Source: Promethearchaeota archaeon (GTDB taxonomy: Archaea; Asgardarchaeota; Lokiarchaeia; Sigyniarchaeales; SOKP01). Taken from it: a DNA stretch of 64,000 nt. Within the stretch, counting starts at the first letter, position 1, and every line of letters begins with the position of its first letter. Below the pieces are notes generated by a model that saw only the letters and a list, made by a program, of their open reading frames with translations, made no database searches and was not told where the DNA came from. Below, in pieces: positions 13,681 through 40,301 of the stretch. Both the position numbers and the translations under genes were made by a program. The DNA lies in assembly GCA_048939995.1 (NCBI GenBank), contig JBHLOY010000002.1, forward strand, positions 384,001 through 448,000, given 5' to 3'.

Positions 13681-13828
13681 TCCCAATCCTATAATAACTA
13701 AAAGAAAAACTTAAATATAAGGAAAAGGTCTATTTTAGCAGACGTGAATAAAGTTAAGTCTATTCTATCTTTTCTAAATTGTTATCTTATCTAAAAAGTT
13801 TGTTAATCAGAAGGAGAATAAAAAATTA

Positions 13829-14425: not shown

Positions 14426-14439
14426 AAGGTCATATAAGG

Positions 14440-19106: not shown

Positions 19107-21179
19107 TTGAAAATGAATTTACAACCCAACGCAATTTATAATGATTATAGAGGGCAGAGTATTGATAAAGTTAAAATCATTGAGTTGTTAATCGACATAA
19201 TTGAAAATATCGATAACGATGACTTAAGAGGAGAATCTATTGAAATTTTAAACAAAATTGATATAAAACAAAATAGAGTATTTAAAATATTAGAAAATAT
19301 CTTAATTTCTGATTTAAATGAGAACTTAAGACATGCAGCAGCAAAAGTTATAATAAATAAATTTCGGAGTAAAGCATTAAAGCCTTTTTTATGGGCACTT
19401 CAACATGAATCTTGCTATAATTGCCTAATAACAGTTCTTAAATCACTCGAGCGCGTTAATGATATAAAAGTAAAAGCATTGCTTATCGATGAGATTGAGA
19501 AGATTGAATTAGAACAATTTAGAGCAAGTTTGTCAGAGTTATTTTTAAATAAATTGATCTACAACTATAAAACTAGTGATTTAGCAGATGTATTAATTAA
19601 TCATGCAACTATATTCTCCCTATTAAAAAAATTTAAAAAACTCAAATTTACAATAGAAAATGGTTTAATTATTAAGCTTGATTTCTCTAATATTGATGAT
19701 CTTGTCATTAATTGGCGTTATAGAGAATTAATTCAAGATGTCACTGATATTATTGGGATACAAAATTTAAAAAACTTGAAAGAGATTGAATTTTTCCCCC
19801 TAAATTGGGCGTTAAATAATGAGTTAACATATAATTGTAATATCGCTTTAATAGAAGCTTTAGAAAGACTTAACAACGATGTAGCTAAAATTAGCTTGAT
19901 TTCACATATAGAAAAAATTGACGATAAAAAATTCGTAAATTCAATTAATGAATTATTAGAATTATACGGTTCAATAAATAATATCTCAATTTCTAAACTT
20001 TCTGATATTTTAAGAAATTTTATTACTATTTCCTATATGAAGAAAAAAAATCCTCAATTAACATATGAAATAGATAAAGCTGAAGTTATAGATTTACATA
20101 TTGAGGGAAAGGCCATTGTTACATTACCAAGTTTTATTAAGAATTTAAGTTCGATTAAAAAACTAATTTTAAAAAATTGTAATATTTATAATCTCCCTGA
20201 AACAATTTACACTTTTAAAAATCTAGAAATTCTTAATTTAGAAGGAAATAATATCGAAATTTTACCTAAAAATATAGAACTTCTTAATTCTTTGAAGATA
20301 TTGAATCTAAACAAAAATAAATTGAGAAAGTTACCTTTTTCAATAGGAAGACTTTACAAGCTAGAGTCTTTAGAACTATCTGATAATGAAATTTCTAAAT
20401 TACCTAATTCAATAGGTTATATTTCCTCTTTAAAATACTTAGATTTAAAAGGTAATAAATTAGAAATACTTCCTGATTCCATTGGTTATATTGAGTCCTT
20501 AAAATGCTTAATTTTGAGCTCCAATAAGATAAAGATATTACCTGAGTCGATCGGTTTGCTGAGATCGCTCGAAACCCTTAACCTTGAGAAAAATTTGTTA
20601 ACAGGGCTCCCTACTACTATAAATTTATTTACCTCATTAAAATTTTTAAATTTAGAAGAGAATAAATTAAATAGTTTACCAGAGTCGTTTGGAACTCTTA
20701 AGTCACTAGAAATCTTAAGATTGGGATGGAACAAACTACAATCTTTACCTCAATCAATTTGTGAATTGGAATCAATTAGATATCTTTATATAATGAACAA
20801 TAAATTGAATAAACTTCCTAATTCAATGAACCTTCTTTCCTCACTCGAGAATTTAGATGTATCTTGGAATATTTTATCACACTTACCTGAATCTATAGGC
20901 AAATTAAAATCTTTAAAAATCTTAAAACTAAATAACAATCGATTAATAAAACTTCCAGAGACAATAGGATTTCTTCAATCATTAAAAATTTTAAACTTAG
21001 ATGAAAATAAGTTGAAAGAGATCCCAAAATCAATATCTTCCCTAACTTCTCTTGAAGAGTTATGGTTAAGTAGTAATGAATTAGAAAGTATTCCTGAACC
21101 CATTACAAATCTTTCATTGAAAAAGTTACAATTAAACAATAATAAGTTAAAAATTGCCAAAAATCCTAATTCAAATTAA
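19107..21179 (+). CDS. HEAT-repeat plus leucine-rich-repeat protein
   Basis: N-terminal HEAT-like repeats (LRHAAAKVI); more than 12 tandem 23-aa LxxLxLxxNxLxxLPxxI repeats. Confidence 0.92.
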   Translation: MKMNLQPNAIYNDYRGQSIDKVKIIELLIDIIENIDNDDLRGESIEILNKIDIKQNRVFKILENILISDLNENLRHAAAKVIINKFRSKALKPFLWALQHESCYNCLITVLKSLERVNDIKVKALLIDEIEKIELEQFRASLSELFLNKLIYNYKTSDLADVLINHATIFSLLKKFKKLKFTIENGLIIKLDFSNIDDLVINWRYRELIQDVTDIIGIQNLKNLKEIEFFPLNWALNNELTYNCNIALIEALERLNNDVAKISLISHIEKIDDKKFVNSINELLELYGSINNISISKLSDILRNFITISYMKKKNPQLTYEIDKAEVIDLHIEGKAIVTLPSFIKNLSSIKKLILKNCNIYNLPETIYTFKNLEILNLEGNNIEILPKNIELLNSLKILNLNKNKLRKLPFSIGRLYKLESLELSDNEISKLPNSIGYISSLKYLDLKGNKLEILPDSIGYIESLKCLILSSNKIKILPESIGLLRSLETLNLEKNLLTGLPTTINLFTSLKFLNLEENKLNSLPESFGTLKSLEILRLGWNKLQSLPQSICELESIRYLYIMNNKLNKLPNSMNLLSSLENLDVSWNILSHLPESIGKLKSLKILKLNNNRLIKLPETIGFLQSLKILNLDENKLKEIPKSISSLTSLEELWLSSNELESIPEPITNLSLKKLQLNNNKLKIAKNPNSN

Positions 21180-21789: not shown

Positions 21790-23154
21790 TTAATAGAATT
21801 CACAATCATTAAGAAGTTGTGAAATATCCATAACTTTTATCGGTGAGTTGTCCTCGTTTGCGACTTCAAATAAATTATTTTTACAAAAAACGCATGAACT
21901 AACAAGAACTTCAGCATTTGTTTCCATTGCTTCTTTTAAACGATCTTCCCTTATTCTTATCATACAAGCGCGAGTTTCTGCTAACCTGTCTCTTCCTATT
22001 TCACCTGCTATCTCACCATATAAAGCTTTTACTCCACCTCCAGCTCCACAACACCAGGACATATCTCTGTTATGTTTCATCTCAAATAATTTTACACCTT
22101 CAATCATATTTAGAAGTTCTCTTGGTTCTTCATAAACTCCACAATATCTACCCAGATGACATGGATCGTGATATGTTATAAGTAGAGGATCTTCTTTTGT
22201 GCGCTGTGTATATCGGATTTTTAAATTCCTTTCTTTGACAGTCTTTAATACGAATTGTGTTAAATGATAAAGATCAAATTCAAGCTTATGTCCCGCATAC
22301 TTAGTATATTCCAGAGTAAATGTGGAGAAACATCCTGAACAAGAAAATACTAATTCAGATACACCACTTTCCAAAATTGTTTTGTAATTATGTTTTACAA
22401 GCTCAATAGCTTCATCTTCCAACCCAGTTCGGAATAATACTGATCCACAACACCGTTCCTCGGGAAATAATACAAATTCAATTCCAAGTTTTGCTAAAAC
22501 CTTGCTTGTTGCAGTTACTAACTCTTTATTTCTATAGGAAGAAGTACATCCAACAAAATACCCTACTTTACCAGGTATACGTTTAGGAACTTTTAATTCA
22601 ACTTCCGCTTTTATTGAATCTAAATCCTGTTTTGCTCGTTGATATGCCTCTCTTCCTTCTTCAACAGCCTCACACCAATTAAATCTGTCCAAATGTTTTT
22701 CTAAAAATGGATTGTTATTCTCAATAATAGAATTTTTTAACACTTTTAATTTTGCAGGGACAGCTCCTTTTTTTACTACTTCTTTACGGAAGTTTTGGAA
22801 CACTTCTAAAGTATCTATTCCGACGGGGCAAACAACTTTACAGTTACCACAAAGCATACAACGAAATACAGATGGGATTATCTCTTCATTATCGAATTTA
22901 ATATCATGACTATCAAGTGCTTTAATAATCCTATTTCGCCCACCAGCATAATCAGTTTCTGACCATGAAGTGTTATAAACCTTACAAACATGTCTACAGT
23001 ATCCACAATGCGTACAGCGCTCATAGGAGTACTTTTCCTTTCTTTTACTTTTAGGTTCTATTAAATTTTCTTTTGAGGGGGATACTAAACCTGCAACTGG
23101 GGGTCCTGTGGTAACTACATTTCTTATATCTTTCTTTTCTTTGCCTTCACTCAT
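21790..23154 (-). CDS. Fe-S oxidoreductase, HdrD/GlcF-like (2x[4Fe-4S] plus two CCG domains)
   Basis: CTHCGYCRHVC, CMLCGNCKVVCP, YFVGC, CCGS, YHDPCHLGR, CCGAGGG. Confidence 0.9.
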   Translation of the reverse strand: MSEGKEKKDIRNVVTTGPPVAGLVSPSKENLIEPKSKRKEKYSYERCTHCGYCRHVCKVYNTSWSETDYAGGRNRIIKALDSHDIKFDNEEIIPSVFRCMLCGNCKVVCPVGIDTLEVFQNFRKEVVKKGAVPAKLKVLKNSIIENNNPFLEKHLDRFNWCEAVEEGREAYQRAKQDLDSIKAEVELKVPKRIPGKVGYFVGCTSSYRNKELVTATSKVLAKLGIEFVLFPEERCCGSVLFRTGLEDEAIELVKHNYKTILESGVSELVFSCSGCFSTFTLEYTKYAGHKLEFDLYHLTQFVLKTVKERNLKIRYTQRTKEDPLLITYHDPCHLGRYCGVYEEPRELLNMIEGVKLFEMKHNRDMSWCCGAGGGVKALYGEIAGEIGRDRLAETRACMIRIREDRLKEAMETNAEVLVSSCVFCKNNLFEVANEDNSPIKVMDISQLLNDCEFY

Positions 23155-23289: not shown

Positions 23290-24789
23290 CTAAAAAATTC
23301 TATATAAGAATTTAGCAGTATTAAATAATAATGATATTCTCCAGAATTTTAATCTAGTTTTAACTATCCGATATGAATTAAACAAATCTTTTGGATCTAA
23401 TAACTTTTTTAATATTTTACTCTTGGATACTAATTCAGGTCTATATTTAAACAAATAAAAAGTATTCACTATACCTATGGTATAAAGCCTATCCCCCTGA
23501 GTAAATGCTAGAACAGAAAGATCATGTAAGAATGCCTTTACTGTAAAGAATTCACTAGTTCTAGCAATATCAGATAAACCAAATACTTTTACTCTACTCC
23601 AACCTAAAATTCCCGAAATTGTATATAAGGCAGTTGGAAATTTATATTTCTTACTTTTCTTTAAATATTTTTGAATAAAATCTTCTAATCTTTTGTCAGC
23701 AATCCAATATTCTTGAAATATTAGATTTCTACTTGATCTTCCTATAGCCACTTCAGCATCACTAATATCACGCCACTTTTCCTTTAAATATAATTTATCT
23801 ACTGCTATTCCATTTAATTCTAAAGCATGTTTCTCAGAAAATGATACACTTTGTGATGTTACCTCAGGATCATCATAATAAACTGCCCAAACTAACCATT
23901 CTTGGTCAGGAAAATTGATATGGGAATAGGTTTCAAATTTGCGTTCTGAAATTGATATGAAAAATGGCTTATTAGTATTATTTTTGAGTTTTTGATAAAA
24001 TTCGATAGCTTCACGAATAGATTTAAAGCCATAACCAATTATTTCCAAGGAAGTTTTTAAGGTTGTAAGAGATAATTCAACCTCGGCTATAGCACCGTAG
24101 ATCCCATAAGTTCCACAAATATCATCGAGTGTTATTTGTCCTTTAGAATCCTTCGAAACAGTGATGATTTTTCCATCAGGTTGGACTAGTTTTAAATTAA
24201 GAATTGAATCTTTCATTGATCCGTATTTTAACACACCAATACCGGCAGTACCGGGGGTAGCTATAAACCCTCCAACACAAGATGTTTTAAAGCTTGTAGG
24301 ATAACATTTAGGTGCAAGACCGTAATCTGAAAGTTTTTCTATCAAATTTAACCAAGAGATACCAGCCCCTACTTTTACTGTCATATTTTCTCTATCTATA
24401 CTTTGGATCTGATTTAATCTCCTTGTGTCTATTATAACACCACCTTTCGAGGGAGTAGCTGAAGAAAAGCATGATGTCCCAGCCGCTCTTATTGTAACAG
24501 GAATTTTTCGCTCTCTACATTTCATTATTAGTTTAGAAAGATTATTAATATCAGCAGGACGGACAATTAGACTCGCAAGGTAATTCTTTTTGAATTTATA
24601 ATGGTATGATGGAAGTGAAGTAAGATCAGCAGATGCTGATTCGAGTTCATAAGGATTGGAACTAACATGATAAGACGATATAAAGTCTTTTACAACCTCT
24701 TCAAAATCACGTTTATCTTTTTCTCGTGAATCTATTATATTGGATTCATTATTCATTTCTTTAGTATTAGAATTCATTTTAAATATCAC
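23290..24789 (-). CDS. FAD-binding oxidoreductase (GlcD/D-lactate dehydrogenase-like)
   Basis: VRP, PVTIRAAGTS, VGAGISW, SCVGGFIAT, KYG, GTYGIYGAI, LDPKDLFN. Confidence 0.85.
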   Translation of the reverse strand: MIFKMNSNTKEMNNESNIIDSREKDKRDFEEVVKDFISSYHVSSNPYELESASADLTSLPSYHYKFKKNYLASLIVRPADINNLSKLIMKCRERKIPVTIRAAGTSCFSSATPSKGGVIIDTRRLNQIQSIDRENMTVKVGAGISWLNLIEKLSDYGLAPKCYPTSFKTSCVGGFIATPGTAGIGVLKYGSMKDSILNLKLVQPDGKIITVSKDSKGQITLDDICGTYGIYGAIAEVELSLTTLKTSLEIIGYGFKSIREAIEFYQKLKNNTNKPFFISISERKFETYSHINFPDQEWLVWAVYYDDPEVTSQSVSFSEKHALELNGIAVDKLYLKEKWRDISDAEVAIGRSSRNLIFQEYWIADKRLEDFIQKYLKKSKKYKFPTALYTISGILGWSRVKVFGLSDIARTSEFFTVKAFLHDLSVLAFTQGDRLYTIGIVNTFYLFKYRPELVSKSKILKKLLDPKDLFNSYRIVKTRLKFWRISLLFNTAKFLYRIF

Positions 24790-24798: not shown

Positions 24799-25665
24799 TT
24801 AAAATAATGGAACCATTAAAAAGCCTGAAAAGAAAGCAGCCCACCAGCAAATTAAAGTAATGTAACCAGTTAATTTAGCATACTTTCGCTCTGCTGCAAT
24901 TCCAAAAAGCATACTGAAAAGTCCAGCAATTAATCCAACTCCCCCTAATATTATATGAGACCAATGGATTCCAAAGGAGAATGACGTCCAGATTGCAGGA
25001 TTAAAAATTACTAGGGAAATAACATTAATCAGGGTTAAAACCCATGAAGCACCGGCTAGAATACCGTGGATTTTCACAAATTTATTTTCATTTATCAGTA
25101 CCAGTACTGTTCCTAAAGATAATAATAATAAGGCTGATAATCCGATATACATTTCAAAATGATTAAATATTTCAATTGTCGGAGCTGGTGGGAGTATTCC
25201 ACCAATGCTAAAAGTGATCTCTATATAGTCGAAAGGAGGTGGGCTACCAGAAACTGAATTATCTCCAGCTAAGATAAGGATCACATAAGCTCCATCCTCT
25301 GAAGGAGCTGTAATATTGAAAGTGACTGTCATTGCATTTGGATTTGGATTTAAATCATCGCCAGAGTTATCTAATATTCTAGCGCTAGTAGGTGAGATAA
25401 TAAATTGATCATTCTGTTTTCCGTCTGAAGGTGCTTGAATAAACAAATCAGAACCAGTAGCAGTAATATTAAAAGAAATGTTATCTGAAGCGTTGATAGG
25501 ATTAAATGTGTTTATATTAGTTTCAATTGAATAACCTCCCGGTACTGTATGGCAATTTTCATGAGGTTGATCGATACTAGGGTAAGCATTTACATTAAGA
25601 AAAATTGAGATTAGGATAACACCAAAAAAGGCAGATATTATTACTATTGCTTTTTTATTCAACAT
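24799..25665 (-). CDS. Membrane protein: exported domain with HENCH motif plus four TM helices carrying His (cytochrome b-like)
   Basis: Signal peptide ending VNA|YPS; H35-E-N-C38-H39; TM histidines in KIHGILAG and IHWSHIILG. Confidence 0.7.
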   Translation of the reverse strand: MLNKKAIVIISAFFGVILISIFLNVNAYPSIDQPHENCHTVPGGYSIETNINTFNPINASDNISFNITATGSDLFIQAPSDGKQNDQFIISPTSARILDNSGDDLNPNPNAMTVTFNITAPSEDGAYVILILAGDNSVSGSPPPFDYIEITFSIGGILPPAPTIEIFNHFEMYIGLSALLLLSLGTVLVLINENKFVKIHGILAGASWVLTLINVISLVIFNPAIWTSFSFGIHWSHIILGGVGLIAGLFSMLFGIAAERKYAKLTGYITLICWWAAFFSGFLMVPLF

Positions 25666-25829
25666 TTTTAAAAGACTATAAGAGTTTTGATCAATAAATC
25701 ATGTACTAATATTAATAAAGCTTATTTCTAAAAATTATTAGTGAATTTAAAATTTTAATGTAAAAATCGCACCTAATCTCCTTATAGTTTTTAAAAATCT
25801 TTTTTAATTTTTGAATTTTAATTCTCTTA

Positions 25830-27533
25830 ATGATATTTAATAAGAATTCCTTGAGAACTGTTATTATTTATGATTTTGTAATTATTTTAGCTGTTGTTGT
25901 CATTATCCCAAATCTATTGAACTTTTTTGATCTAAATCTAAAAATTCAAGTACTATCTTACCTCGCCAACATTCTAATTTTATTAAATATTATCATAGTA
26001 GTTATAGATTTAATCTTCTTGATGTGGAAGAGAGAAAATTATTTGTATCTAACATCATTCAATATGACTCTATCAGTTTCAATTTTTTTGCTGTTAGAGT
26101 ACTGTTTTGTGAATGGTTATTACGATTTTTTTTATGTATGGAGTTATAGTGAATTGACTTTACCACTTGTTTATAAGATTGTTGCTATATGGGCAGGAGA
26201 GGCTGGTTCAATAATGACTTGGATGGTATTTAACTCAGTAATTATTTTTGCCTATAGAATTAAAAACCAAGATAAAGAGGATACAGTTTTTCTATTATCA
26301 TGTATAGTTTCCATGATAATTTCTATTTTGTTTTTAATAATTTTATTCTCACTTAACCCTTTTAAAGTAGAGCAGCCAGTTTTGTATCCCAATGGTTTTG
26401 GACTCAGCCCTCAATTGATGTCCCCTTTTATGATTTGGCATCCTTTTTTTACATTTTTAGCATATGCCATCTTTCTAATTCCATTCACTATTAATATTAT
26501 AAATCTTATAAAACCAAAATTGTCTTTAAGAAATCCTTATCAGCAAGCATTTTATAATTTTTCATTAAAATTTGGATGGTTAGTTATTACCCTAAGTATA
26601 GGTTTAGGAGCTTATTGGGCAAAAATTACTTCCGCTTGGGGCAGATATTGGGGCTGGGACCCAGTAGAGGTTGTATCTCTTATTCCCTGGTTTTTTTGTA
26701 CTGCTTTTTTTCATTCCAGTATATTTAAAGTGAAAAATCCTAGGATTATTAAAATAAATTCCATCTTAATCTTTTTTTCAATAATATTTGCCACCTTAAT
26801 AACTAGGGGAGGAGTATTGAGTTCGCTTCACGCATTTACAGGAGGAGGAGAATTGGTTATATGGGTTTTAATTATTGGTTTTATTTTATTAGCTTTTGCG
26901 ATATATGTAATTTACGAAATTTTAAATTACTTCTTGGAAGACTATCATAAAATTAAGAGCTTTTTTGATTATTTAAGCTATCTGATTTTATTTTGCTTAT
27001 CTTTTGTTTGCATTTTTGGACTGATAATTCCTCCTCTAACTAATTTCATATCAAATTTTATCGCAATTGATTCAATAATCATTGGTCCAAACTTCTTTAT
27101 GATTAGCGCATTCATATTAGCTATAATATTGGCAATTTCGCTCATTTTTTGTTCCTTGTGGGATATCTATAACAAAAGGTGGATCATAATCACTTTATTC
27201 ATTGTATTTTTGATACAGTTGATTATTTCATTATTTTTATTTTTTCTATTTGATCTTTGGATAAATCCATTTATTGCCATCTTTTATTATGCTCTTTTTG
27301 CTTCAACCTTTCGATTAATAAAGAGAACGAATCTTCAAATGGGGTTCCAAAAGTTCTTTAGAACAAATTCAAAAACGATTATACATGGAGGAATATCACT
27401 TATTTTGATAGGGACTTTAATTGATGCCAGTTACGAAGTAATTTTAGATATTTTTTACATTTCTGGATTTGGTTTTTTACTAATTGGGATAATACCCTCT
27501 ATTTTTATGGTTTTTTTTATTAAAGCACATTGA
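25830..27533 (+). CDS. ccmF: Cytochrome c heme lyase CcmF (short form)
   Basis: WAGEAGS, GLSPQL..PFMIWHP, WGRYWGWDPVE (WWD domain), FFHS, TRGG...LHAF, IIHGG. Confidence 0.88.
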   Translation: MIFNKNSLRTVIIYDFVIILAVVVIIPNLLNFFDLNLKIQVLSYLANILILLNIIIVVIDLIFLMWKRENYLYLTSFNMTLSVSIFLLLEYCFVNGYYDFFYVWSYSELTLPLVYKIVAIWAGEAGSIMTWMVFNSVIIFAYRIKNQDKEDTVFLLSCIVSMIISILFLIILFSLNPFKVEQPVLYPNGFGLSPQLMSPFMIWHPFFTFLAYAIFLIPFTINIINLIKPKLSLRNPYQQAFYNFSLKFGWLVITLSIGLGAYWAKITSAWGRYWGWDPVEVVSLIPWFFCTAFFHSSIFKVKNPRIIKINSILIFFSIIFATLITRGGVLSSLHAFTGGGELVIWVLIIGFILLAFAIYVIYEILNYFLEDYHKIKSFFDYLSYLILFCLSFVCIFGLIIPPLTNFISNFIAIDSIIIGPNFFMISAFILAIILAISLIFCSLWDIYNKRWIIITLFIVFLIQLIISLFLFFLFDLWINPFIAIFYYALFASTFRLIKRTNLQMGFQKFFRTNSKTIIHGGISLILIGTLIDASYEVILDIFYISGFGFLLIGIIPSIFMVFFIKAH

Positions 27534-27578
27534 CTGAAAAAAACAGCTTAATTTCCGCCAGAATTTCTCAATATTTCG

Positions 27579-27648
27579 ATTTTTAAATTAAACTTTTTTG
27601 GGGAAATTGTTTCAGCTTGAAACTAAAAGCAAATTGATTGTTTAAATT
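27579..27648 (+). promoter_or_regulatory. Three-box element (starts 27579, 27609, 27640)
   Basis: ATTTTTAAATTAAAC, GTTTCAGCTTGAAAC, GTTTAAATT spaced 30/31 bp. Confidence 0.55.
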
Positions 27649-27772
27649 ACTCAGATTAGAAAAAAGTTAAAAATTGTTAAACTTATTATAAAATTAATTA
27701 TCAAACTTTGTTAAAATCTAATTTAAAGTTTAAAAATTAGACGTAATAATAACAACTTAAATGTGAATTTTA

Positions 27773-30169
27773 ATGAAAAACAAAAAACGCAAGCTATTAT
27801 CCCTTATTATTGTTATCTGCTCTTTACTTCTATTTACTGGATTTACAATTGCTTATACAAGTTACTTTGATGATTTTAATGGAACATCTCACGGCACTTC
27901 TTGCCACTTTAGCTCTTCAACTCAAAGTAGTACGGGATATTTATCAATAGTATCAAGTTCAGGAAATACCGTAAATCCCGGTGAGAATTTTATACTATCT
28001 GTTCAAGTAAAAAGTTTCAGCGAAGCAGATGGAAAAGAACTTAAATTTGGTTTTCCTAGTGGCACTCCAGGCAGAGGAGATAATAAGCAATTTGGTTTTA
28101 ATACCACAATGGTCTCTGCAGATATAACTTCTGGAGATTCAGCGATATTTGATTTTCTAGTTAATGCACCTCTGACAGAGCAATCATATACTTTAACTGC
28201 TGATGCAATATACCGAAAGAGTGGTAGTGAGACTATATGGGCGTCTACTAATTATATAGTAACAGTCCAAACTTCCTCAGACATTTTACCCCCAGAGCTC
28301 ATCATTATCGATCCGAAAGATAATGAATACAAAAATGGCAATATATTGATTAATGCAAGTGTTATTGACAATGGAGGTTCAGGTCTTAATACAGTATGGG
28401 CAGAAATTACTAATAATAACTCTTTTAATCAAACTGTTTCAATGAATTTAAACACTGATCCATATTATAACGCTATTTGGGATTCAACTTCTGCGCTTGA
28501 TGGTCCTTATACTATAAATGTGAAAGCTAATGATGGAGCCTTTAATATTAATGATACAGAATCTGTAAATGTGATCATTGACAACACCGCGCCCTCAATT
28601 GTTTTAAATAGTGTGCTCCCAAATCCTTCAAATGGATTAACATCTATAAGAGCAATGAATTTTAGTTCAGATATCAATAATTATGGGATTAGGGCAACTA
28701 TAACAACTCCCACTGCTAACAAAATTTTCCTTGATCTAATATATCAAGGAGGAAATGAATGGAACAATACATTTACTATAACCCAAAATGGAATATATTC
28801 TGTTCAGATAAATGCAAGTGACTATTTAGGAAATATTAATATTTCATCCTCATTAAGCATTAATGGAGACATTTTAAATCCTTTTGTTGATATTACAAGT
28901 CCTGGAAATGATGGAGATACCATCGGGGGAGATACTATTATTATAAGCGGATGGGCATATGGTACAGGTACTAACATTGTAAGTTTATTTATAAACGATT
29001 CAAGATGGGGAATTACTCAGAATAAACCCCAGATTGACCCCAGCGGCACTTCTAGTGGACCATTCAGTTTTGAAAATAATAGTTATATATCTCCAGGATT
29101 TTATTGGGTTGAAGTTAACATTACAGACGCTGCTGGAAATATAAATATAAGTAAAAGATATTTCGAAGTCGTTTCGAACGATATTTTTCCACCTATCCTT
29201 GTTTTTAGCTTAATAAATCCAAATCCATCAAATGGTTTTACTAATATTACTGTTATATCAAATGAACCATTAATAGGAAATCCATTGTTAAGTATAACCA
29301 CTCCAAATAGTACTACTATTTATAGAACACTTTATCCTACGGGGGTTCCGAGAACATGGATAACCAATTATACAATTCATGAAACAGGAACTCACTTTAT
29401 ACAAGTAAATGGAACAGATCTTCATTCAAATGTGGGTTTTAAAACGGATTCATTTTATGGAGATATTGATGCACCTTGGATTACCCTTGATAATGTTTAT
29501 CCAAATCCATCCAATGGCTTAACGTTAATAACTGCTTTTAATGCAAGCTCGGATATTGATATAAATGGATTATGGGCCACAATAACAACACCTAGTAAAT
29601 CAATTTCCATTCAACTTAATTATCAAGAGAACAGTAAGTGGAATGCAACCTTCATAGTAACTGAAGATGGAACTTATTCCATCCAAGTAAATGCGACTGA
29701 TTTTGCTGGAAACACAAACATTACAGACTTAATTTATATTACTGGTGATATTAGTACTCCAATTTTATCAATAATTTCACTTCCAATTGAGAGTGGGGTT
29801 AATGCTCCAAACTTTTCTATCTCCATAACAGAGCCAAATTTAGATGGCATATGGTATTCACTATATAATGGCATTTACTGGTCTCAAAATATCACTATTA
29901 TTGGATTTAATGGGACTTTAGAGCAATCTTTATGGGATACCATGCCTACAGGGGATATCTTAATTAGGTTTTATGCAAATGATACGTTAGGACACATAGG
30001 ATATATAGATATTACTATTAGTAAAAATATACCCCAGACGAATATCAATCCTGGGGAAGGAACAGTATCAGGATTCGATTTAGGTATAATAATCGCAACG
30101 ACTTCAGCGATTCCACTTATATTTATAATTCTATGGCTAAAATCAAGGACAAAAAGATTTATTCGATAA
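27773..30169 (+). CDS. Cell-surface glycoprotein: HGTSCH domain, Ig-like repeat stalk and C-terminal sorting anchor
   Basis: Signal peptide TIA|YTS; H40-G-T-S-C44-H45; repeated PNPSNG(L/F)T modules; many NxS/T sequons; VSGF plus TM plus basic tail. Confidence 0.8.
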   Translation: MKNKKRKLLSLIIVICSLLLFTGFTIAYTSYFDDFNGTSHGTSCHFSSSTQSSTGYLSIVSSSGNTVNPGENFILSVQVKSFSEADGKELKFGFPSGTPGRGDNKQFGFNTTMVSADITSGDSAIFDFLVNAPLTEQSYTLTADAIYRKSGSETIWASTNYIVTVQTSSDILPPELIIIDPKDNEYKNGNILINASVIDNGGSGLNTVWAEITNNNSFNQTVSMNLNTDPYYNAIWDSTSALDGPYTINVKANDGAFNINDTESVNVIIDNTAPSIVLNSVLPNPSNGLTSIRAMNFSSDINNYGIRATITTPTANKIFLDLIYQGGNEWNNTFTITQNGIYSVQINASDYLGNINISSSLSINGDILNPFVDITSPGNDGDTIGGDTIIISGWAYGTGTNIVSLFINDSRWGITQNKPQIDPSGTSSGPFSFENNSYISPGFYWVEVNITDAAGNINISKRYFEVVSNDIFPPILVFSLINPNPSNGFTNITVISNEPLIGNPLLSITTPNSTTIYRTLYPTGVPRTWITNYTIHETGTHFIQVNGTDLHSNVGFKTDSFYGDIDAPWITLDNVYPNPSNGLTLITAFNASSDIDINGLWATITTPSKSISIQLNYQENSKWNATFIVTEDGTYSIQVNATDFAGNTNITDLIYITGDISTPILSIISLPIESGVNAPNFSISITEPNLDGIWYSLYNGIYWSQNITIIGFNGTLEQSLWDTMPTGDILIRFYANDTLGHIGYIDITISKNIPQTNINPGEGTVSGFDLGIIIATTSAIPLIFIILWLKSRTKRFIR

Positions 30170-30258
30170 CCTTTTAAAAAGTAAAATTTTTTTTTAATTT
30201 ATTAATTTAAGATAATTAAATTGCTTCATTTGAGACTATTAAATCTTAGAACTTTAAG

Positions 30259-30981
30259 TTGAAGAATTTGGCTATTAAAAATAAAGAAATCATCAATTGT
30301 AAAAATGTTTCAAAGCAATTTGGATATTTCTTTGCATTAAAAGATATTTCATTCAAAGTAATAGCAAATACTATCTTTGGGATTGCAGGAGCAAATGGAG
30401 CAGGTAAAACAACACTGATTAAGATTTTATCTGGATTAATGAATCCTTCTTCTGGAAAAGTATACATTCAAGGTAATAATTATACTGAAAATCCGTTTTT
30501 GATTAAGGAAATGATAGGAATTAATACTGAGGAATCTTTTCTTTATGAGGAGTTGACTATTAATGAAAATCTAGAGTTTTATGATAATCTTCATTACAAC
30601 TTCAATAAAAGTCAGATAAGAAATAAAGTAGAAAACTATGCAGAATTATTTGAAATTCACGATTGGTTAGATGAACCCATTCGGAATTTATCTCATGGAA
30701 TGAAACAAAAAGTTGAAATAATTAGAGTTTTAATGCATGAGCCTTCAATATTGTTCTTAGATGAACCCTTTTCAGGTTTAGACTTTAAAGCAACTAAATT
30801 ATTAATAAATTTACTTCAGAATTTAAAAAAAGGAAAAAATGTAACAATAATACTAACTACTCATAAAATTGATGTATTATCAAAAATCTATGATGATTTA
30901 ATCATTTTAAAAAAGGGAAAAATCAACAAATTCATTACAAAAGAAACTTATGAAGAATTTGAAATAGAATCATATTTTTGA
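30259..30981 (+). CDS. ccmA: Heme export ABC ATPase CcmA
   Basis: GANGAGKTT, LSHGMKQK, LFLDEPF; directly upstream of a ccmB-like gene. Confidence 0.82.
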   Translation: MKNLAIKNKEIINCKNVSKQFGYFFALKDISFKVIANTIFGIAGANGAGKTTLIKILSGLMNPSSGKVYIQGNNYTENPFLIKEMIGINTEESFLYEELTINENLEFYDNLHYNFNKSQIRNKVENYAELFEIHDWLDEPIRNLSHGMKQKVEIIRVLMHEPSILFLDEPFSGLDFKATKLLINLLQNLKKGKNVTIILTTHKIDVLSKIYDDLIILKKGKINKFITKETYEEFEIESYF

Positions 30982-30990
30982 GCTAGCATA

Positions 30991-31707
30991 ATGGAGATAA
31001 AATTTAAAGATAGAATTAAGTTATTCTTTTCTATATTAAGAAAAGATTTAAAATCTGAAATCCGTCAAATAAACGATATATTTTCAATATTTCTTTTTGA
31101 TGTTATATCTATTTTTATATTTTCATCAGTATATAGCTTCAGTACACAATATCAACAGATCCCGCTTGAAATATTTATAATTGAGGTCTGGTTAATAATT
31201 TTTTTTACTCTTATTTTTATAATGGCTAAATTATTCATTAAAGAAAAAGAATCTGGAACCTTAGGAGGATTAATTTCTTCGCCAATTTCAGCCAACACAA
31301 TAATATTTAGTAAGGTAATTTTTTGTTTTATTCTATTGAGCTTTATCGAAATCATTCTTTTTCTCTTTAGTTTCTTTATTTCTAATCCTTTAATACCCAA
31401 TTTACAATTTAATAATGTGATAAATTATATACTCTTAGGGATTATTTTACCAACATTAGATTTATCAATCTGTGGGACAATAGTATCAGCAATTTCTATG
31501 TATGCTAAGAAAAAATCTTTTATTATACCACTTATCCTATTTCCGATAATATTGCCAATAACAATCCCAATAATATCGATTAATATTAAATTGTTAGAAT
31601 TAGCTGCGTTTCTTGAATTAACTTATGAAATTTTATTTTTAGTTTCACATATTATTCTTATGACTTCAATATTAGCTTTAGTTTCTCAAAATCTTCTTTT
31701 TGATTGA
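30991..31707 (+). CDS. ccmB: Heme export permease CcmB
   Basis: ILRKDLKSEIR, FIKEKESGTL, K at TM entry, IIPLILFPIILP; 6 TM. Confidence 0.85.
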   Translation: MEIKFKDRIKLFFSILRKDLKSEIRQINDIFSIFLFDVISIFIFSSVYSFSTQYQQIPLEIFIIEVWLIIFFTLIFIMAKLFIKEKESGTLGGLISSPISANTIIFSKVIFCFILLSFIEIILFLFSFFISNPLIPNLQFNNVINYILLGIILPTLDLSICGTIVSAISMYAKKKSFIIPLILFPIILPITIPIISINIKLLELAAFLELTYEILFLVSHIILMTSILALVSQNLLFD

Positions 31708-31710
31708 AAA

Positions 31711-32049
31711 TTAGCTACACTGAATGAGAATTTGGCTTGCTTTTAAAATCAACGTAATGTTGAATTGACCTGCAACCACTATTTCAATTCCATTTTTTAG
31801 TTCGCTTGGTACAGTAATTTGAGAAACATCGATTAAAATTGTATCATCATTCTCTGTCAAATTAAAGTTGCCCCCTGAAAAGCCTTCTACAATCCCAATT
31901 ACTTGAATTTCAAGATTATCATATTCTGTAGGATTGGAAACAACCTGAGAAACCCTAAGATATGGTCGTATATTAATAACTACTAATATAATAATAAGAA
32001 CTAATGAAAAAATAATTGCTATTATTGCTATAATCTTCGCTTTTTTCAA
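31711..32049 (-). CDS. ccmE: Heme chaperone CcmE, ending at Cys-Ser
   Basis: N-terminal TM, YLRVSQV, IQVIGIV, P...KNG.EIVVAGQF, ASQILIQCS-stop. Confidence 0.82.
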   Translation of the reverse strand: MKKAKIIAIIAIIFSLVLIIILVVINIRPYLRVSQVVSNPTEYDNLEIQVIGIVEGFSGGNFNLTENDDTILIDVSQITVPSELKNGIEIVVAGQFNITLILKASQILIQCS

Positions 32050-32068
32050 TTTAATCTCTTGCTATTTG

Positions 32069-32206
32069 TTATTTTTCTAATTTATTAATTCTTTTTTTTA
32101 TTTTTCTTATACGTAATTTTGGATATAAGATTAAAATAACAATAATAGTCCAAAACAAGGCATAACTGATAGCCATTGTAATAGAATCTAAAACAACCTC
32201 GGACAT
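32069..32206 (-). CDS. ccmD: CcmD-like small membrane protein (45 aa, not in the ORF track)
   Basis: Translated by hand: MSEVVLDSITMAISYALFWTIIVILILYPKLRIRKIKKRINKLEK; one TM with Y...W plus a basic coiled tail, between ccmC and ccmE. Confidence 0.8.
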   Translation of the reverse strand: MSEVVLDSITMAISYALFWTIIVILILYPKLRIRKIKKRINKLEK

Positions 32207-32211
32207 TACTT

Positions 32212-33012
32212 TTAATCATCTCGTAACTTATTTTGAATAATTTCATTTAATTTTTGTTTATTTTTATCTAGTTCAACTAAATTTCTTACCACATAAACGA
32301 AAAAGAGAGTCATCGCTATCAAGTTAAGAAATAATATAAGAAGTTTCATAAAATCCCAATAAATATAACCTGATTCACTTGGATTTGGAGTTATTAATGG
32401 ATGTAAACTTGTAAAAATGATTGCAGAAAGATAACTTAAAGGCACTGTTGGAAAAAAAATAATTCCTAAAATTGAAGTTAATTTAGCTCTCCTTTCTCTA
32501 TCTTCAATCATAGTCCCAAAAATTAAATAAGATAAATATGAGAGAAACAAGACTAAAGTCATAGTTTGTCGCGGGTCACTCCACTGCCAATAAACATTAT
32601 TATAAAGTCCCGAAGTAGCATTATACCAGAGTGATCCTGTGATAAGTGTTACTGCACAAAAAAATACACCTACGACAATACTATTCTTTCCTATACTATT
32701 CCAGAATAGTTTTCTTTGTATGAGGTATAATATATGACAAATAAGACTTACTCCAAATGAAAAGTAGGAAAGCCAAGCTGATGAAACATGATAAAAAAAA
32801 ATCATATACACAATGCGGCTAAAATTTGTCAATAAAAAAATCAAAAATAAGTTAATGATGAGGAATGAAATTGAAATGATAAGTAAATAATCTTTTTTTA
32901 CCCAACTTCTGATGTCTTTCATCTTAATTCTCAAATAAATATAAAATTTTGTATTGAGTGAGTTATAATTAATATTATTGCTGTTAATACTTTCAATATT
33001 AAAAAAGATCAA
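32212..33012 (-). CDS. ccmC: Heme delivery protein CcmC
   Basis: FFYHVSSAW, TGSLW, YWQWSDPRQT (WWD-like), SLHP. True start is probably a downstream Met (MKDIRS). Confidence 0.88.
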   Translation of the reverse strand: MIFFNIESINSNNINYNSLNTKFYIYLRIKMKDIRSWVKKDYLLIISISFLIINLFLIFLLTNFSRIVYMIFFYHVSSAWLSYFSFGVSLICHILYLIQRKLFWNSIGKNSIVVGVFFCAVTLITGSLWYNATSGLYNNVYWQWSDPRQTMTLVLFLSYLSYLIFGTMIEDRERRAKLTSILGIIFFPTVPLSYLSAIIFTSLHPLITPNPSESGYIYWDFMKLLILFLNLIAMTLFFVYVVRNLVELDKNKQKLNEIIQNKLRDD

Positions 33013-33124
33013 AAAAGTCTTTTAATCCTTATAATTGGAAGTTATTTTAATTCATTTTTAAAATTTGTTCTTATGGAATAATGGTTATTTCAAAAAAAAA
33101 AAAAAATGATAGATTTAAATTGAA

Positions 33125-33778
33125 CTATTTAGAAGCTTTACGTTTCTTTCGATATACTAATACGACTATAAGTGAGGCAGTTGTAATGGCAAGTACTCCA
33201 ACCAAAGTATAAATTTCAAATCCAGGAATAGCTCCACCGCTAACAGTCAAAACTACATTGCCTGAAGCATAAATAATACTCAGAGCAGAGCCATCAGTGT
33301 GATTTGCGGCAGTTAAAACGTCAACAACTAGGTTATAAGTACCATCTGTAGATGGAGCTAGTAAATCAAAAGAAACTGAAACATTAGCATCTCCATTAAC
33401 ATCTAAAGTAATTCCTCCTAATCTTATTGGTTCACTTAATTTTTTGCCAAATTGAGCATTATCACCACGAGTAGAAGCGACTGCCACACTCACTTGACTA
33501 TCTCTATCTATAGTTAATGCTTCAGTAAAATTTGTAATTACTACATTTACAGTAAACTCTTGGCCTGCTGTTAGTGATGTACCCTGAATGGAGACAACGG
33601 TTACTGCAGCGCCAGCGCTTTCTGTAGTAGGACCATCCCCAACATGACATCCAGCATGTGAACCACCAAGAAAGCTTTCAATGGAAGATGGGTAGGCAAC
33701 CGCACCACCAACTAAAACTAGAAGAAAAGCAAATACGGCAATAAGAGGGATTATTTTTCTTTTCATTTGATTAGCCAC
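33125..33778 (-). CDS. Surface-anchored protein with HAGCH motif and PGF/Loki-CTERM-type anchor
   Basis: Signal peptide AVA|YPS; H41-A-G-C44-H45 is the only Cys; RGDNAQFG; C-terminal IPGF plus TM plus RKKRK. Confidence 0.8.
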   Translation of the reverse strand: MANQMKRKIIPLIAVFAFLLVLVGGAVAYPSSIESFLGGSHAGCHVGDGPTTESAGAAVTVVSIQGTSLTAGQEFTVNVVITNFTEALTIDRDSQVSVAVASTRGDNAQFGKKLSEPIRLGGITLDVNGDANVSVSFDLLAPSTDGTYNLVVDVLTAANHTDGSALSIIYASGNVVLTVSGGAIPGFEIYTLVGVLAITTASLIVVLVYRKKRKASK

Positions 33779-34205: not shown

Positions 34206-34769
34206 ATGCAATTAGATAATATTGATAAACAAATACTAAACGCCTTATTCAAAAATGGACGAGAAAGCTTAACTAGTTTAGAGAAAATAATAATTAAATC
34301 TGATACAGAAACTATGAGTCATACTGGTATTGCTAAAAGGATAACAAAATTAGAAGATAATGATCTTATTAAAGTTCAAGCTAATACTAATTTAAATAAA
34401 CTCCAATATAAAGGCCTATTTTTGTTAATGGAAATGGTTAATTTTGAGGAAGTTCAAAATATTATTAAAGCATACAGCGATTGCCCTAGAGTATTTTTAA
34501 TGGCGCCTGTAACTGGACAATACAATTTAATTTTAGGTGTCGTAGGGCAAAATCTTGATATTTTACACCGATATTTAAATTATTGTGGTCCCACGAATAA
34601 AAAAGGGATTTTGCATTCTGCTGTGATGTTTACTACAGATCTTATTAAACCAAAATATGTTCCCATTGACTTATTCAGCCAAGAAAGCCATGAGATTGAT
34701 TGTGGGAATGTGTGTAAAAATTGTGCTGCTTATCTTGATGGAAAATGTAATGGTTGCGGAAATTTTTAA
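34206..34769 (+). CDS. Lrp/AsnC family regulator with Cys-rich C-terminal tail
   Basis: LDNIDKQIL..L..NGRES HTH, RITKLE, VTGQYNL RAM domain; tail CGNVCKNCAAYLDGKCNGC. Confidence 0.88.
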   Translation: MQLDNIDKQILNALFKNGRESLTSLEKIIIKSDTETMSHTGIAKRITKLEDNDLIKVQANTNLNKLQYKGLFLLMEMVNFEEVQNIIKAYSDCPRVFLMAPVTGQYNLILGVVGQNLDILHRYLNYCGPTNKKGILHSAVMFTTDLIKPKYVPIDLFSQESHEIDCGNVCKNCAAYLDGKCNGCGNF

Positions 34770-34975: not shown

Positions 34976-36289
34976 ATGGCAGTAAAAGTCGCATTTTACC
35001 AATGTTCAGATTGCTGGGGCTGTCATCAATCCTTAATAAACGCTCATCTAGGGTTGTTGCCAGTATTACCAGCACTAGATATTGTGTACTGGCCGGCAGT
35101 GATTGATATGAAATATGATTCTTTAAAATCTAGACCAGACGGAGATATCTTAGTAGGTTTCATTGAAGGAAGTCTTAGAACAAATGATGACGTAGAAAGT
35201 GCTAAATTAATGAGGGCTAAATGCAAACTTATCATATCATTTGGTTCTTGTGCATGTTATGGTAATGTACATGGATTAGCAAATCAATGGGATATCCAAG
35301 AGTTAATTAATCGGAAATTTGGTGAAGTGGAAAGCATTACTAATGAATCACCACATGAACCAAAAGAACATGTCCCTGGGTTCGCCGCTAAAATTGTACC
35401 GTTAGATGAAATTATTCAGGTTGATGCGTATATTTCAGGATGCCCACCTAAACCAGAAGCTATTATTAGTGCAGTACAGTTCCTACTTGGTCAAAAGCCA
35501 TTCCCTTCCAATGAAATACCATTCTGTAATGATTGTGCTATAAAAAATGAATGTCTATTAGATTCAGGAACGCTATGTTTTGGACCAATTACTAGTACCG
35601 GATGTAATTTAAAGTGTACTAGTGACAGAAACCCATGTGTAGGTTGTTATGGACCATCTAAAACGATAGATATGAGAGCAGAAAAATTAAATACAATGAC
35701 AAAAAGTCTATATACACCCAATACAGGAGATAAAAAAAGTTTTCATGAATTTTTAACGCTATTTCTAAATATCCCATTAATGGCAGGTTTTGATCTTTCT
35801 GGAGATCTTTTAAAGCAGATCAAGAAACGAGGATTTGTTCAATCCCCATTAGCAAATTTACCTTCAACTACGGAAGAAATTGCATCTAATTTAATGAAAT
35901 ATATGGCTAATAATCCAGATTTTCACGAGATCTCGAATGTGTGTGATACATGTCCTAGAATTATTGGTAGTAAATCAACAATGACAAAAGTAAAAAGAGA
36001 TTATGAAGGACTCCCTAATATGGAAGATTGCTTCATTGAACAAGGATACATTTGTATGGGACCTGTGACTAAAGCTGGTTGCGGTGGTTTATGCATAAAG
36101 GTTAACGCACCTTGTACTGGTTGCTTTGGGCAGACCAAATGGGGTGTTAATCAAGCAGAGAGATTTGCTGATACTGTAATTAAGGGTTTCAATGTGAGTT
36201 TATCTAAAGAAGAGCTACTTGCTCAGGTAAAAGATCATATTGGTACTTTTGAAAAATTTACATTTGCATCAAGAAAAGGAGGTATATAA
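34976..36289 (+). CDS. vhuG: Group 3c hydrogenase small subunit MvhG/VhuG with duplicated C-terminal Fe-S module
   Basis: CSDCWGCH, FIEG, GSCACYG, SGCPP; two C.GP.T..GC...C......PC.GC modules. Confidence 0.9.
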   Translation: MAVKVAFYQCSDCWGCHQSLINAHLGLLPVLPALDIVYWPAVIDMKYDSLKSRPDGDILVGFIEGSLRTNDDVESAKLMRAKCKLIISFGSCACYGNVHGLANQWDIQELINRKFGEVESITNESPHEPKEHVPGFAAKIVPLDEIIQVDAYISGCPPKPEAIISAVQFLLGQKPFPSNEIPFCNDCAIKNECLLDSGTLCFGPITSTGCNLKCTSDRNPCVGCYGPSKTIDMRAEKLNTMTKSLYTPNTGDKKSFHEFLTLFLNIPLMAGFDLSGDLLKQIKKRGFVQSPLANLPSTTEEIASNLMKYMANNPDFHEISNVCDTCPRIIGSKSTMTKVKRDYEGLPNMEDCFIEQGYICMGPVTKAGCGGLCIKVNAPCTGCFGQTKWGVNQAERFADTVIKGFNVSLSKEELLAQVKDHIGTFEKFTFASRKGGI

Positions 36290-36292
36290 AAT

Positions 36293-37597
36293 ATGACAAA
36301 AGAAATAGATGTAGAGCCTGTAACTCGATTAGAAGGGCATGGAGGGTTGCGATTGGTTTTAGGAGATGATGGAACAGTACAAGATGTGCAATTTAACATC
36401 ACATCGACAAGATTTTTTGAGAAATTTTTAGAAGGTCGTTACTGCGAGCATATAAACCGGATTACGCCTCGGATTTGTGGAATTTGTCCCATTCCTCATC
36501 ATTTATCACCAACGAAAGCTGTAGAAGATGCTTGGGGTGTTGAAATTCCCACACCAGCCTTAAAATTACGAAAGTTGCTCATTAATGCAAAGCAATACTC
36601 CTCTCATGCTTTACATTTCTATGCATTGGCAGCACCAGATTTCTTATTAGGACCTATGGCAGATCCTGCATTAAGAAATGTGGTTCATGTAATCAATAAA
36701 ATGCCAGATGTTGGAGCTATGGCTCTAAAAATGATGGATTTTGGTCAAAAATTATGCGCGGCTATTGGGGGTAAGTCTGTGCATCCTATTTCAGCTATTG
36801 TTGGTGGGATGAAAAAAGCAATGGATGAAGATGCTCGAGATTTATTCTTAAAGCAAATTGGAGATCAAGTTGAATGGACGAAAAAGACAGTAGATATCGG
36901 ATTGAAAGTTGTCGAGGATTACTGGGATGTTGTTGCAAACGTAGGAGTTGTACCTACATACTATGCTGGGATGACTAAAAATGGAGTTCATGATATTTAT
37001 GAAGGAGATCTTAGGATTGTATCTCCTGATGGACAGAAATTTGATTATCCGCCTCAAAAATATTTAGAGGTATTAGGTGAATATATTCCTGAACATTCAT
37101 ATGCTACCCATATGTATTACAAGCCTGCTGGATACCCTGAAGGGATTTATCGGGCGAATACATTGGCTATGATTAATGCCGCTGATAGAATGGCAACTCC
37201 TTTAGCTGATGAAGCATTAAGGGCAATGAGAGATAAGGTTGGTGCTATTTCGCATCACACATTTGCTTATCATTGGGCAAGATTAATTGAATTAGTAGAA
37301 TCTATTGAGATGATTGCTACATTACTTCAAGATCCAGATATACTCAATCCAGATTGTAAAACATTAGATGTACAACCTAGAGAGGCTGACGGAGTCGGTT
37401 TAGTAGAAGCACCTCGTGGTCTATTACTATATCATATTTGGTCAGATGCTGATGGTCTATGTAAAAAGGCTAACCTTTTAGTAGCTACCAATCATAATAT
37501 TGCAGGAATTGAAAAAACTTTAAAATTCGTAGCGAAGCAAGTATTTGAACAAAACGCTTTGGCCGGATTAAAATTACCAGACCCTTGGATAAAATAA
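36293..37597 (+). CDS. vhuA: Group 3c hydrogenase large subunit MvhA/VhuA, lacking the C-terminal Ni-binding motif
   Basis: PVTRLEGH, RICGIC (L1), EAPRG, VATNHN; ends PDPWIK with no CxxC L2 motif. Confidence 0.93.
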   Translation: MTKEIDVEPVTRLEGHGGLRLVLGDDGTVQDVQFNITSTRFFEKFLEGRYCEHINRITPRICGICPIPHHLSPTKAVEDAWGVEIPTPALKLRKLLINAKQYSSHALHFYALAAPDFLLGPMADPALRNVVHVINKMPDVGAMALKMMDFGQKLCAAIGGKSVHPISAIVGGMKKAMDEDARDLFLKQIGDQVEWTKKTVDIGLKVVEDYWDVVANVGVVPTYYAGMTKNGVHDIYEGDLRIVSPDGQKFDYPPQKYLEVLGEYIPEHSYATHMYYKPAGYPEGIYRANTLAMINAADRMATPLADEALRAMRDKVGAISHHTFAYHWARLIELVESIEMIATLLQDPDILNPDCKTLDVQPREADGVGLVEAPRGLLLYHIWSDADGLCKKANLLVATNHNIAGIEKTLKFVAKQVFEQNALAGLKLPDPWIK

Positions 37598-37629
37598 AAT
37601 TAAAAAGATATAAAGGCGATATAAAAGAA

Positions 37630-37782
37630 ATGAGTGAAGAAATACCAGAAGGAGTAGTAAATCTTTTAGAAATGGTAGTTCGCTGTTTTGATTGCTGACT
37701 ATCGTGTGCCGCACACATCACCGTTGTTGATGAAAAAGGCTCTGAGATTTACTCTCGCGAGTTAAATGTTGGCTTAGGATGA
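37630..37782 (+). CDS. vhuU: Selenoprotein VhuU, the separate C-terminal peptide of the hydrogenase large subunit (Sec UGA at 37696-37698)
   Basis: Translated by hand: MSEEIPEGVVNLLEMVVRCFDC-U-LSCAAHITVVDEKGSEIYSRELNVGLG; the TGA sits at the first Ni ligand of the L2 motif that vhuA lacks. Confidence 0.9.
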
Positions 37783-37839
37783 ATATCCAATATAAACAAT
37801 AGATTGGATACAACTGCCCATGCACGGGTTAAAGCCAAC
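37768..37839 (+). promoter_or_regulatory. Candidate SECIS-type RNA structure overlapping the vhuU stop
   Basis: Outer helix GTTGGCTT/AAGCCAAC; ATGA; inner helix TATCCAAT/ATTGGATA with AAA in the loop; side hairpin GCCC/GGGT. Confidence 0.55.
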
Positions 37840-37876
37840 CAAAATATAAAATAAAAAAGAAAGAAGAAACGGAATA

Positions 37877-39262: not shown

Positions 39263-39441
39263 TTGATTTAAACATTTTTATAATATTTTTTTTTATTGTC
39301 TCATTTTTCTGCGATGAACTCATTGCTGTAAAATTTAAATAACAAGAAATTCAAAATATTTATATTAATAAAATATACTAATACGTTAAGAAGGGTATAG
39401 AAAATTCCTTAATTTTAACTAGATCAAAATAGGTATAAAGA

Positions 39442-40230: not shown

Positions 40231-40301
40231 TTAATAACCGCAATTTTTTTTTAAAAGAAACCATTACACCCCTTAAGAAGAAAATTTTTTATTTCATTGT
40301 T

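Follow-up and report, generated by a model that had tools for sequence, protein, structure and literature searches.

A cytochrome c maturation locus in a Lokiarchaeial genome that is apparently dedicated to one-cysteine heme-motif proteins

System I of cytochrome c maturation is taken to require a pair of cysteines in its substrates. What, then, does a set of cytochrome c maturation (Ccm) genes do when the exported proteins encoded among them carry a single cysteine each? This question is raised by a locus of Promethearchaeota archaeon (Asgardarchaeota; Lokiarchaeia), located in the window analysed here, that is, a stretch of 64,000 nucleotides (contig JBHLOY010000002.1, positions 384,001 to 448,000, assembly GCA_048939995.1). 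The assembly has a size of 3.75 Mb in 38 contigs and is 98% complete. An earlier note on this window had described ccmF, ccmA, ccmB, ccmC, ccmD and ccmE interleaved with three exported proteins, here named PA, PB and PC (coordinates are shown in Table 1), and had proposed that the latter form a non-canonical class of c-type heme proteins in which His replaces the first Cys of CxxCH. We re-derived the open reading frames (ORFs), strands and motif coordinates of the window, all of which match that description. On the basis of motif conservation, co-occurrence with ccmE and CxxCH-bearing orthologs, such a class is supported as a prediction from sequence. The locus is a real and conserved Ccm locus, apparently dedicated to one-cysteine substrates, and we consider it fairly probable that a variant of System I* turns these substrates into c-type cytochromes with a single thioether, which feed an electron conduit in the membrane.

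The N-terminal domains of PA, PB and PC are homologous (30-33% identity), and a search of the proteome with a hidden Markov model (HMM) of the family returned these three proteins as the only matches, which bears out their common N-terminal design. The motifs HENCH, HGTSCH and HAGCH lie where they had been reported, and the motif Cys is the sole Cys of each protein outside signal or membrane segments; with one Cys per ectodomain, none of them has the canonical CxxCH with its two thioethers. Each protein has an N-terminal hydrophobic segment, as expected for export, and the invariant Cys-His (the cleavage site was judged by eye). PA and PC are predicted, also by eye, to start with Tyr-Pro after processing, and a simple signal-cleavage rule revealed no reliable Tyr-Pro enrichment across the family. 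Two details of the earlier description hold in part: the shared (R)GDN.QF-like motif is present with DN in two proteins, PA reading QN there, and the H-x2/3-C-H spacing applies to the window, relatives having x2-x4 and distant matches up to x6. The motif is not a chance occurrence, because only three out of the 540 proteins whose N-terminus has a hydrophobic segment show Cys-His in the next 35 residues or so, and these are exactly PA, PB and PC.

The genome holds one CcmC and one CcmF, and the search for other substrates was extended from the window, where no exported CxxCH protein had been noticed before, to the whole genome. The genome contains 36 ORFs with CxxCH. Judged from their sequences, these resemble cytoplasmic Fe-S or Zn proteins, or else the motif is unsuitably placed, either after a membrane helix or far within a solute-binding-like protein. 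Thus, PA, PB and PC appear to be the only plausible Ccm substrates in this genome. As a complete Ccm is accompanied only by one-cysteine candidate substrates, these are probably cytochromes that are invisible to standard CxxCH searches.

The distribution of the domain was analyzed in related genomes. In the Loki family of this genome (f1), which is represented by 134 other genomes, ccmE was found in 28 and the domain in 30; all 28 ccmE-bearing genomes had the domain, and one of the two domain-only genomes had a CcmF/C-family match. It should be noted that the genomes are related to each other and incomplete, and the counts have to be taken as descriptive. In family f31, which belongs to another Asgard class, the domain was present in 37 of 38 ccmE genomes. 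The domain therefore follows ccmE closely in both families, a co-location that had been proposed as a check. A 6-7-heme cytochrome accompanies ccm in families f31 and f16 (13/13); a multiheme query did not find it in the 29 Loki genomes, and PF13435 was matched in none of these 29 genomes versus 9 of 11 comparison genomes. Three long repeat proteins (P0026, P0093 and P0122), which match the domain HMM via low-information stretches and have no Cys-His, were treated as false.

That His stands in the place of the first Cys could be confirmed from relatives. At the f1 ccm loci, 64 out of 65 domains read H-x(2-4)-C-H and none (0/65) reads CxxCH. P0084, which is 40% identical to PA from end to end and has the same neighbours, including a ccmF-sized gene, carries CNSCH aligned to HENCH, and the f31 copies examined have C-x(1-5)-C-H in the same domain, beside ccm genes and multihemes. 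Among 235 domains collected, the upstream residue was His in 142, Cys in 67 and neither in 26; Cys-His was a selection criterion for this set, yet 141 of 155 unselected search matches also have it. In the alignment of these domains, His (140) and the first Cys (42) fall into a single column; conservation of His or Met could be observed in no other column. Bare Cys-His forms adjoin ccm genes in three genomes (G095, G136 and G145). The invariance of His/Cys/His, another proposed check, is thus nearly complete at the f1 ccm loci and does not extend to the whole family, in which 26 domains have neither His nor Cys upstream. In a tree built without the motif, the first-position state changes about 22 times versus a shuffled mean of 78, and at least four changes of the His state fall on well-supported branches; the poor resolution of this tree (148 columns) does not allow us to claim any order of events. 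Counts and tree together indicate that across the family the first position is labile, and that it is fixed as His at most Loki loci. The earlier note had considered this His as a second ligand or as the partner in a His-vinyl link. Its place in the first-Cys column stands, but a mere loss of one thioether is more likely than a special chemistry of this His, because the domains with neither residue include some beside ccm genes. That it acts as second axial ligand to the same heme is doubtful on steric grounds, given the i/i+4 spacing, and the His may be a retained yet replaceable pocket residue.

Some unusual forms of the domain were also observed. In three loci (L048:10837-11952, L109:13267-14382 and L110:8231-9346), a PA with bare Cys-His is paired with a membrane-bound HdrC/HdrB-like pair and not with an FAD oxidoreductase. 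In P0043 (L284:3560-6007), a single chain of 815 aa combines an HxxxCH domain with a 4Fe-4S/CCG protein as a fusion. A large exported protein adjoining a ccmF pair (L070:1284-3980) has C-D-T-G-H (Cys-x3-His) after its signal peptide and is possibly another single-Cys variant.

The maturation machinery itself looks intact. Family scans matched ccmA, ccmB, ccmC, ccmE and ccmF as described; the ccmD of the earlier note can only be called D-like, since its PF04995 match (21.1 bits, E 3e-4) is below the cut-off of 25.6. The WWD motif and four His (His204, His295, His334 and His519) of CcmF are kept in 27 of 27 homologs, and three of these His align with Thermus CcmF; the two His of CcmC are likewise kept in 27/27. 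CcmE is of the Cys type, as Cys111 is in the position of the CPSKY Cys of f31 CcmE, which ends with CPSKY or CPSRY. However, here and in the main copies of 26 out of 28 relatives it ends with Q-C-S-stop and lacks the Tyr of CxxxY; one of the remaining relatives adds Thr, and in one genome the only tail is of the Y-C-C-D-R type, which a second copy in G145 shares. Archaeal CcmE has been described as universally CxxxY (PMC9084895), and the Tyr is dispensable in E. coli (PMC3601427). Pairwise dN/dS values were 0.08-0.19 for the ccm genes, 0.09-0.18 for PA and 0.23-0.35 for PC; such purifying selection leads us to reject decay, which agrees with the previous suggestion of selection. A second CcmE type ending with Tyr-Cys-Cys-Asp-Arg (L070:8761-9030 and L063:11245-11538) adjoins two tandem ccmF genes in G095. 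CcdA/DsbD was not found in the studied genome and is mostly present in f31, and CcdA is dispensable in Methanosarcina. The idea that its loss co-varies with single-Cys substrates was dropped, as PF02683 matches many ccm-less genomes.

The genes next to PA point to redox partners. PA starts an apparent operon that continues with a GlcD-like flavoprotein and a CCG Fe-S protein, with hydrogenase and Hdr-like genes around. Its membrane part, in which His169, His200, His234 and His237 are kept in 28-35 of 35 orthologs, has a faint likeness to cytochrome b561 and DUF420 and may be cytochrome-b-like. A 400-aa protein of f31 has the same 4-His membrane domain and the same FAD/CCG neighbours. Thus, the locus could encode a transmembrane electron conduit ending in surface hemes. 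In four f31 loci (L103, L105, L118 and L119), several pairs of FAD oxidoreductase and CCG protein, each with a CxxCH-type copy of the domain, form arrays that adjoin ccm genes and a 7-heme cytochrome.

What the domain is related to was approached by profile and structure comparison. Pfam and PDB sequence searches revealed no family for it. NF041895 (choice-of-anchor V) gave weak matches to PB and PC (16-22 bits in the window versus a cut-off of 42; E 2e-4 for PC) and matched 21 of 49 relatives at E up to 0.1, one CxxCH relative reaching 39.6 bits; the C-terminus of PC scored 22.2 bits with Heimdall-CTERM (cut-off 24). By these matches the domain is a distant relative of choice-of-anchor V, below the formal membership cut-off. 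AlphaFold2 predicted a beta-sandwich both for PC (pLDDT 84, motif loop uncertain) and for an f31 CxxCH domain (pLDDT 93). Compared with cytochrome f, the PC model gave Z 7.6 (rmsd 4.3, 132 aligned), with Tyr29, the predicted mature N-terminus, opposite residue 1, and the f31 model gave Z 7.5 (rmsd 3.6, 116/128 aligned). For both models, cytochrome f was the longest alignment among the chains listed, its Z being below or tied with generic Ig folds. Foldseek and VIA also ranked generic Ig/macroglobulin folds first for PC; among the top 50 Foldseek rows, 12 were chains of cytochrome f and four were F-spondin Reeler chains, and the Atlas pointed to Reeler clusters. The local hhalign score against cytochrome f was 24 versus 10 +/- 2 for shuffled columns, a score that includes Cys-His itself; global hhalign was uninformative. 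Neither NF002736 nor Pfam models of cytochrome f matched, and the small domain and the b6f context are absent. The models suggest a possible homology to cytochrome f, in which heme ligands are Tyr1 and His25 (PMC8044140). As even CxxCH members have no distal His or Met, the simplest reading is that the sixth ligand would most likely be, like that of cytochrome f, the N-terminal alpha-amine left after processing, or be absent. A predicted complex also lends support to a possible PC homodimer, with a score of 0.55 (best of three controls 0.00), at least 96% of contacts agreeing between runs and pLDDT of at least 80; 20 of 30 solved pairs, compared with 1 of 23 single chains, attain the mark, a calibration that is rough here because our own alignment and the heme ligand were used. 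The interface includes Asn107-Ser115, that is, the N-x-x-F segment previously noticed as shared. His41 is not named at the interface, which speaks neither for nor against a bridging-ligand role.

From gene content, the motif, orthology, co-occurrence, selection and catalytic residues, we infer the following scheme. CcmABCD would load scavenged heme b onto Cys111 of the tail-less CcmE, and CcmF would attach it by one thioether to the motif Cys of the exported apoproteins, the following His serving as proximal iron ligand. Through its 4-His membrane domain, PA would connect the FAD/Fe-S (CCG) oxidoreductase in the cytoplasm with the outer heme, and PC and the stalked PB might pass electrons further along the surface. 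Several observations weigh against this scheme. In E. coli, Ccm matures single-cysteine cytochromes very poorly, and an adduct of CcmE, heme and cytochrome becomes trapped (PMC3268396); because of this trapping, the altered CcmE may be an adaptation that eases heme transfer to an acceptor with one Cys. The near-complete conservation of the first His at these Loki loci exceeds the expectation for a neutral residue. Two genomes, G155 (93% complete) and G031 (78%), carry the domain and have no CcmC/F-family match. Unrelated Ig folds score best in the structure comparison (Z 8-10), cytochrome f not being above them, and the hhalign match to cytochrome f (E 0.003-0.05) spans only about 30-34 columns. 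Finally, hemA, hemB, ahbAB and FecCD permease were not found in the genome, nor AhbD above the cut-off. Heme must therefore be scavenged, and the same holds for lineages with ordinary multihemes: ALAD (hemB) was matched in 3 of 81 ccmE-bearing Asgard genomes, the other 78 including those with 6-7-heme CxxCH cytochromes. Thus, ccmE-bearing Asgard archaea without ALAD seem to build c-type cytochromes from scavenged heme.

The single-thioether reading has to be compared with other explanations. The His could form a mixed double linkage, the Cys thioether holding one vinyl and an N-C bond from the upstream His the other, which would fit both its near-invariance at the ccm loci in the first-Cys column and its spacing (x2-x6), which varies as that of Cys does in relatives (x1-x5). 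A His-vinyl bond is known in cyanobacterial GlbN. It also exists in CcmE (PMC3268396). The domains with neither Cys nor His upstream, some of them adjoining ccm genes, and the repeated changes of the His state on well-supported branches speak against such a linkage, which we rate as unlikely. To our knowledge, no Ccm-made His link occurs in a final cytochrome. A joint reading, in which a rebuilt Ccm with tail-less CcmE makes the Cys thioether plus the His-vinyl link in a cytochrome-f-homologous fold with the N-terminal amine as ligand, has in our view a small chance of being right.

It is also improbable, in our judgement, that an auxotroph uses these surface domains for heme capture or storage, binding heme non-covalently or as a covalent sink, with Ccm-like proteins in charge of its traffic. 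The lack of heme synthesis genes and FecCD permease, the Tyr ligand missing from CcmE, the long Ig stalk on which PB displays its domain and the domain-bearing genomes with no ccm match would be in line with this idea. However, PA carries a fused membrane domain with four His and lies beside FAD/Fe-S oxidoreductase genes in both families, and orthologs carry canonical CxxCH; moreover, auxotrophy does not single out these proteins, because multiheme-bearing Asgard genomes also have no ALAD. Still less credit is due to the idea that the proteins are Reeler-like adhesins in which His/Cys/His forms a metal site (Zn, Cu or Ni) or a disulfide between chains, ccm being used for heme export or something else. 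As a metal ligand set, His-x2-Cys-His is plausible, the Reeler domain of F-spondin, which is heme-free, is also matched by the fold and hydrogenase maturation genes are nearby, yet an intact, selected CcmF lyase with no other substrate, ccmE co-occurrence in two families and the CxxCH orthologs would be left unexplained. That the locus is decaying, or that its Ccm serves CxxCH proteins missed in the assembly, might be suspected from the number of contigs, the truncated CcmE and a degraded PB in G010. This explanation is barely credible and largely refuted already, as the same CcmE truncation is fixed in most relatives, dN/dS is far below 1 and no multiheme match exists in 29 genomes.

The features of the locus are listed in Table 1. 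The order PC-ccmC-D-E / ccmB-A / PB / ccmF / PA-FAD oxidoreductase-CCG protein recurs in f1, with PB and PC gained or lost. PB is dispensable, being missing or degraded in many relatives; in G010 it has shrunk to a 56-aa remnant (L011:13663-13833), and PA, PC and ccm are intact. A promoter scan, which uses a bacterial model, gave results at chance level.

Table 1. Coordinates of the features of the ccm locus in the window
Feature	Position	Strand	Remarks
PC	33125-33778	-	signal peptide, Reeler/cytochrome-f-like domain (predicted), Heimdall/Loki-CTERM-like C-terminal anchor; heads ccmC-D-E strand
HAGCH motif of PC (H41-A-G-C44-H45)	33644-33658	-	
ccmC	32212-33012, likely start near 32922	-	two conserved His and W-x-W-S-D-P-R variant of WWD
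ccmD-like small membrane protein, 45 aa	32069-32206	-	PF04995 below cut-off
ccmE, Cys type, truncated	31711-32049	-	ends Q-C-S-stop; no CxxxY Tyr
ccmB	30991-31707	+	PF03379, 44.8 bits
ccmA-type ABC ATPase	30259-30981	+	ABC ATPase family match; ccmA by adjacency to ccmB
PB	27773-30169	+	signal peptide, motif domain, Ig-like repeat stalk, C-terminal anchor
HGTSCH motif of PB (H40-G-T-S-C44-H45)	27890-27907	+	
ccmF heme lyase	25830-27533	+	WGRYWGWD; His204, His295, His334, His519
PA	24799-25665	-	signal peptide, motif domain, 4-helix membrane domain with four conserved His
HENCH motif of PA (H35-E-N-C38-H39)	25549-25563	-	
GlcD-like FAD-linked oxidoreductase	23290-24789	-	directly downstream of PA; conserved partner
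4Fe-4S and CCG-domain (GlcF/HdrD-like) protein	21790-23154	-	conserved partner

In the surroundings, two [NiFe]-hydrogenase/Hdr-like clusters (hypF, hypD, hypE and hypC-like; 5454-17790 and 34976-40550) flank the ccm locus, and the downstream one is syntenic in many relatives. An Lrp/AsnC-type regulator with a C-terminal four-Cys cluster (34206-34769) is divergent from PC, conserved and often duplicated in relatives. The window also contains two convergent purF-like glutamine amidotransferase genes (2373-5304) and a 690-aa protein with a HEAT-like N-terminus and long leucine-rich repeats (19107-21179), a eukaryote-like type typical of Loki genomes.

Known systems share parts of this arrangement. 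System I* of archaea and Desulfovibrio (for example, Methanosarcina ccmABCEF; PMC3601427, PMC9084895) has the same CcmA/B/C/E/F, a Cys-type CcmE and the WWD motif with His ligands, and ccmG and ccmH are absent from the present locus too; here, however, CcmE stops one residue past Cys, a CcmD-like gene is present and the genome offers no CxxCH substrate. Igni_0759 and Igni_1052 of Ignicoccus are predicted Reeler-fold monoheme cytochromes (PMC4429474). Like these and other NF041895 proteins, whose known members are predictions only, PA, PB and PC have an exported N-terminal beta-sandwich with the heme motif just past the signal peptide and varied C-terminal anchors, and differ by His for the first Cys and by their low scores. 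The large domain of cytochrome f (PetA) is also a beta-sandwich, to which the predicted models align over the whole domain at scores no higher than those of Ig folds, with the heme motif near the processed N-terminus, no distal His or Met and a C-terminal membrane anchor, and the Tyr-Pro start predicted for PA and PC resembles that of PetA. In contrast, identity is about 12%, the present proteins have one Cys and no small domain, they belong with System I rather than System II, and no Rieske or cytochrome b6 genes are found at this locus. One thioether is known from heme ci of cytochrome b6 and from euglenozoan cytochromes c and c1, whose A/FxxCH retains the same Cys-His (PMC5526843), but these have other folds, other maturation systems and no His in the first position. 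Dedicated maturases for odd heme motifs have precedent (PMC3601427): NrfEFG (CxxCK) and the Wolinella lyase for CX15CH are likewise clustered with, and apparently dedicated to, an odd motif, although their motifs keep two Cys, whereas here the only Ccm of the genome apparently serves the odd one. Our literature search, with incomplete coverage, found no paper on the HxxCH motif, and the locus appears to represent a new variant both of System I* and of c-type cytochromes.

A natural System I with only one-Cys apparent substrates and a Tyr-less CcmE provides a test case for how CcmE releases heme and why two thioethers are used. If the proposed fold link holds, these proteins would be non-photosynthetic relatives of cytochrome f. 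If the reading as cytochromes is true, about one-fifth of the genomes of this Loki family (28/134) would make surface cytochromes that are missed by CxxCH counts, which would bear on models of Asgard electron transfer.

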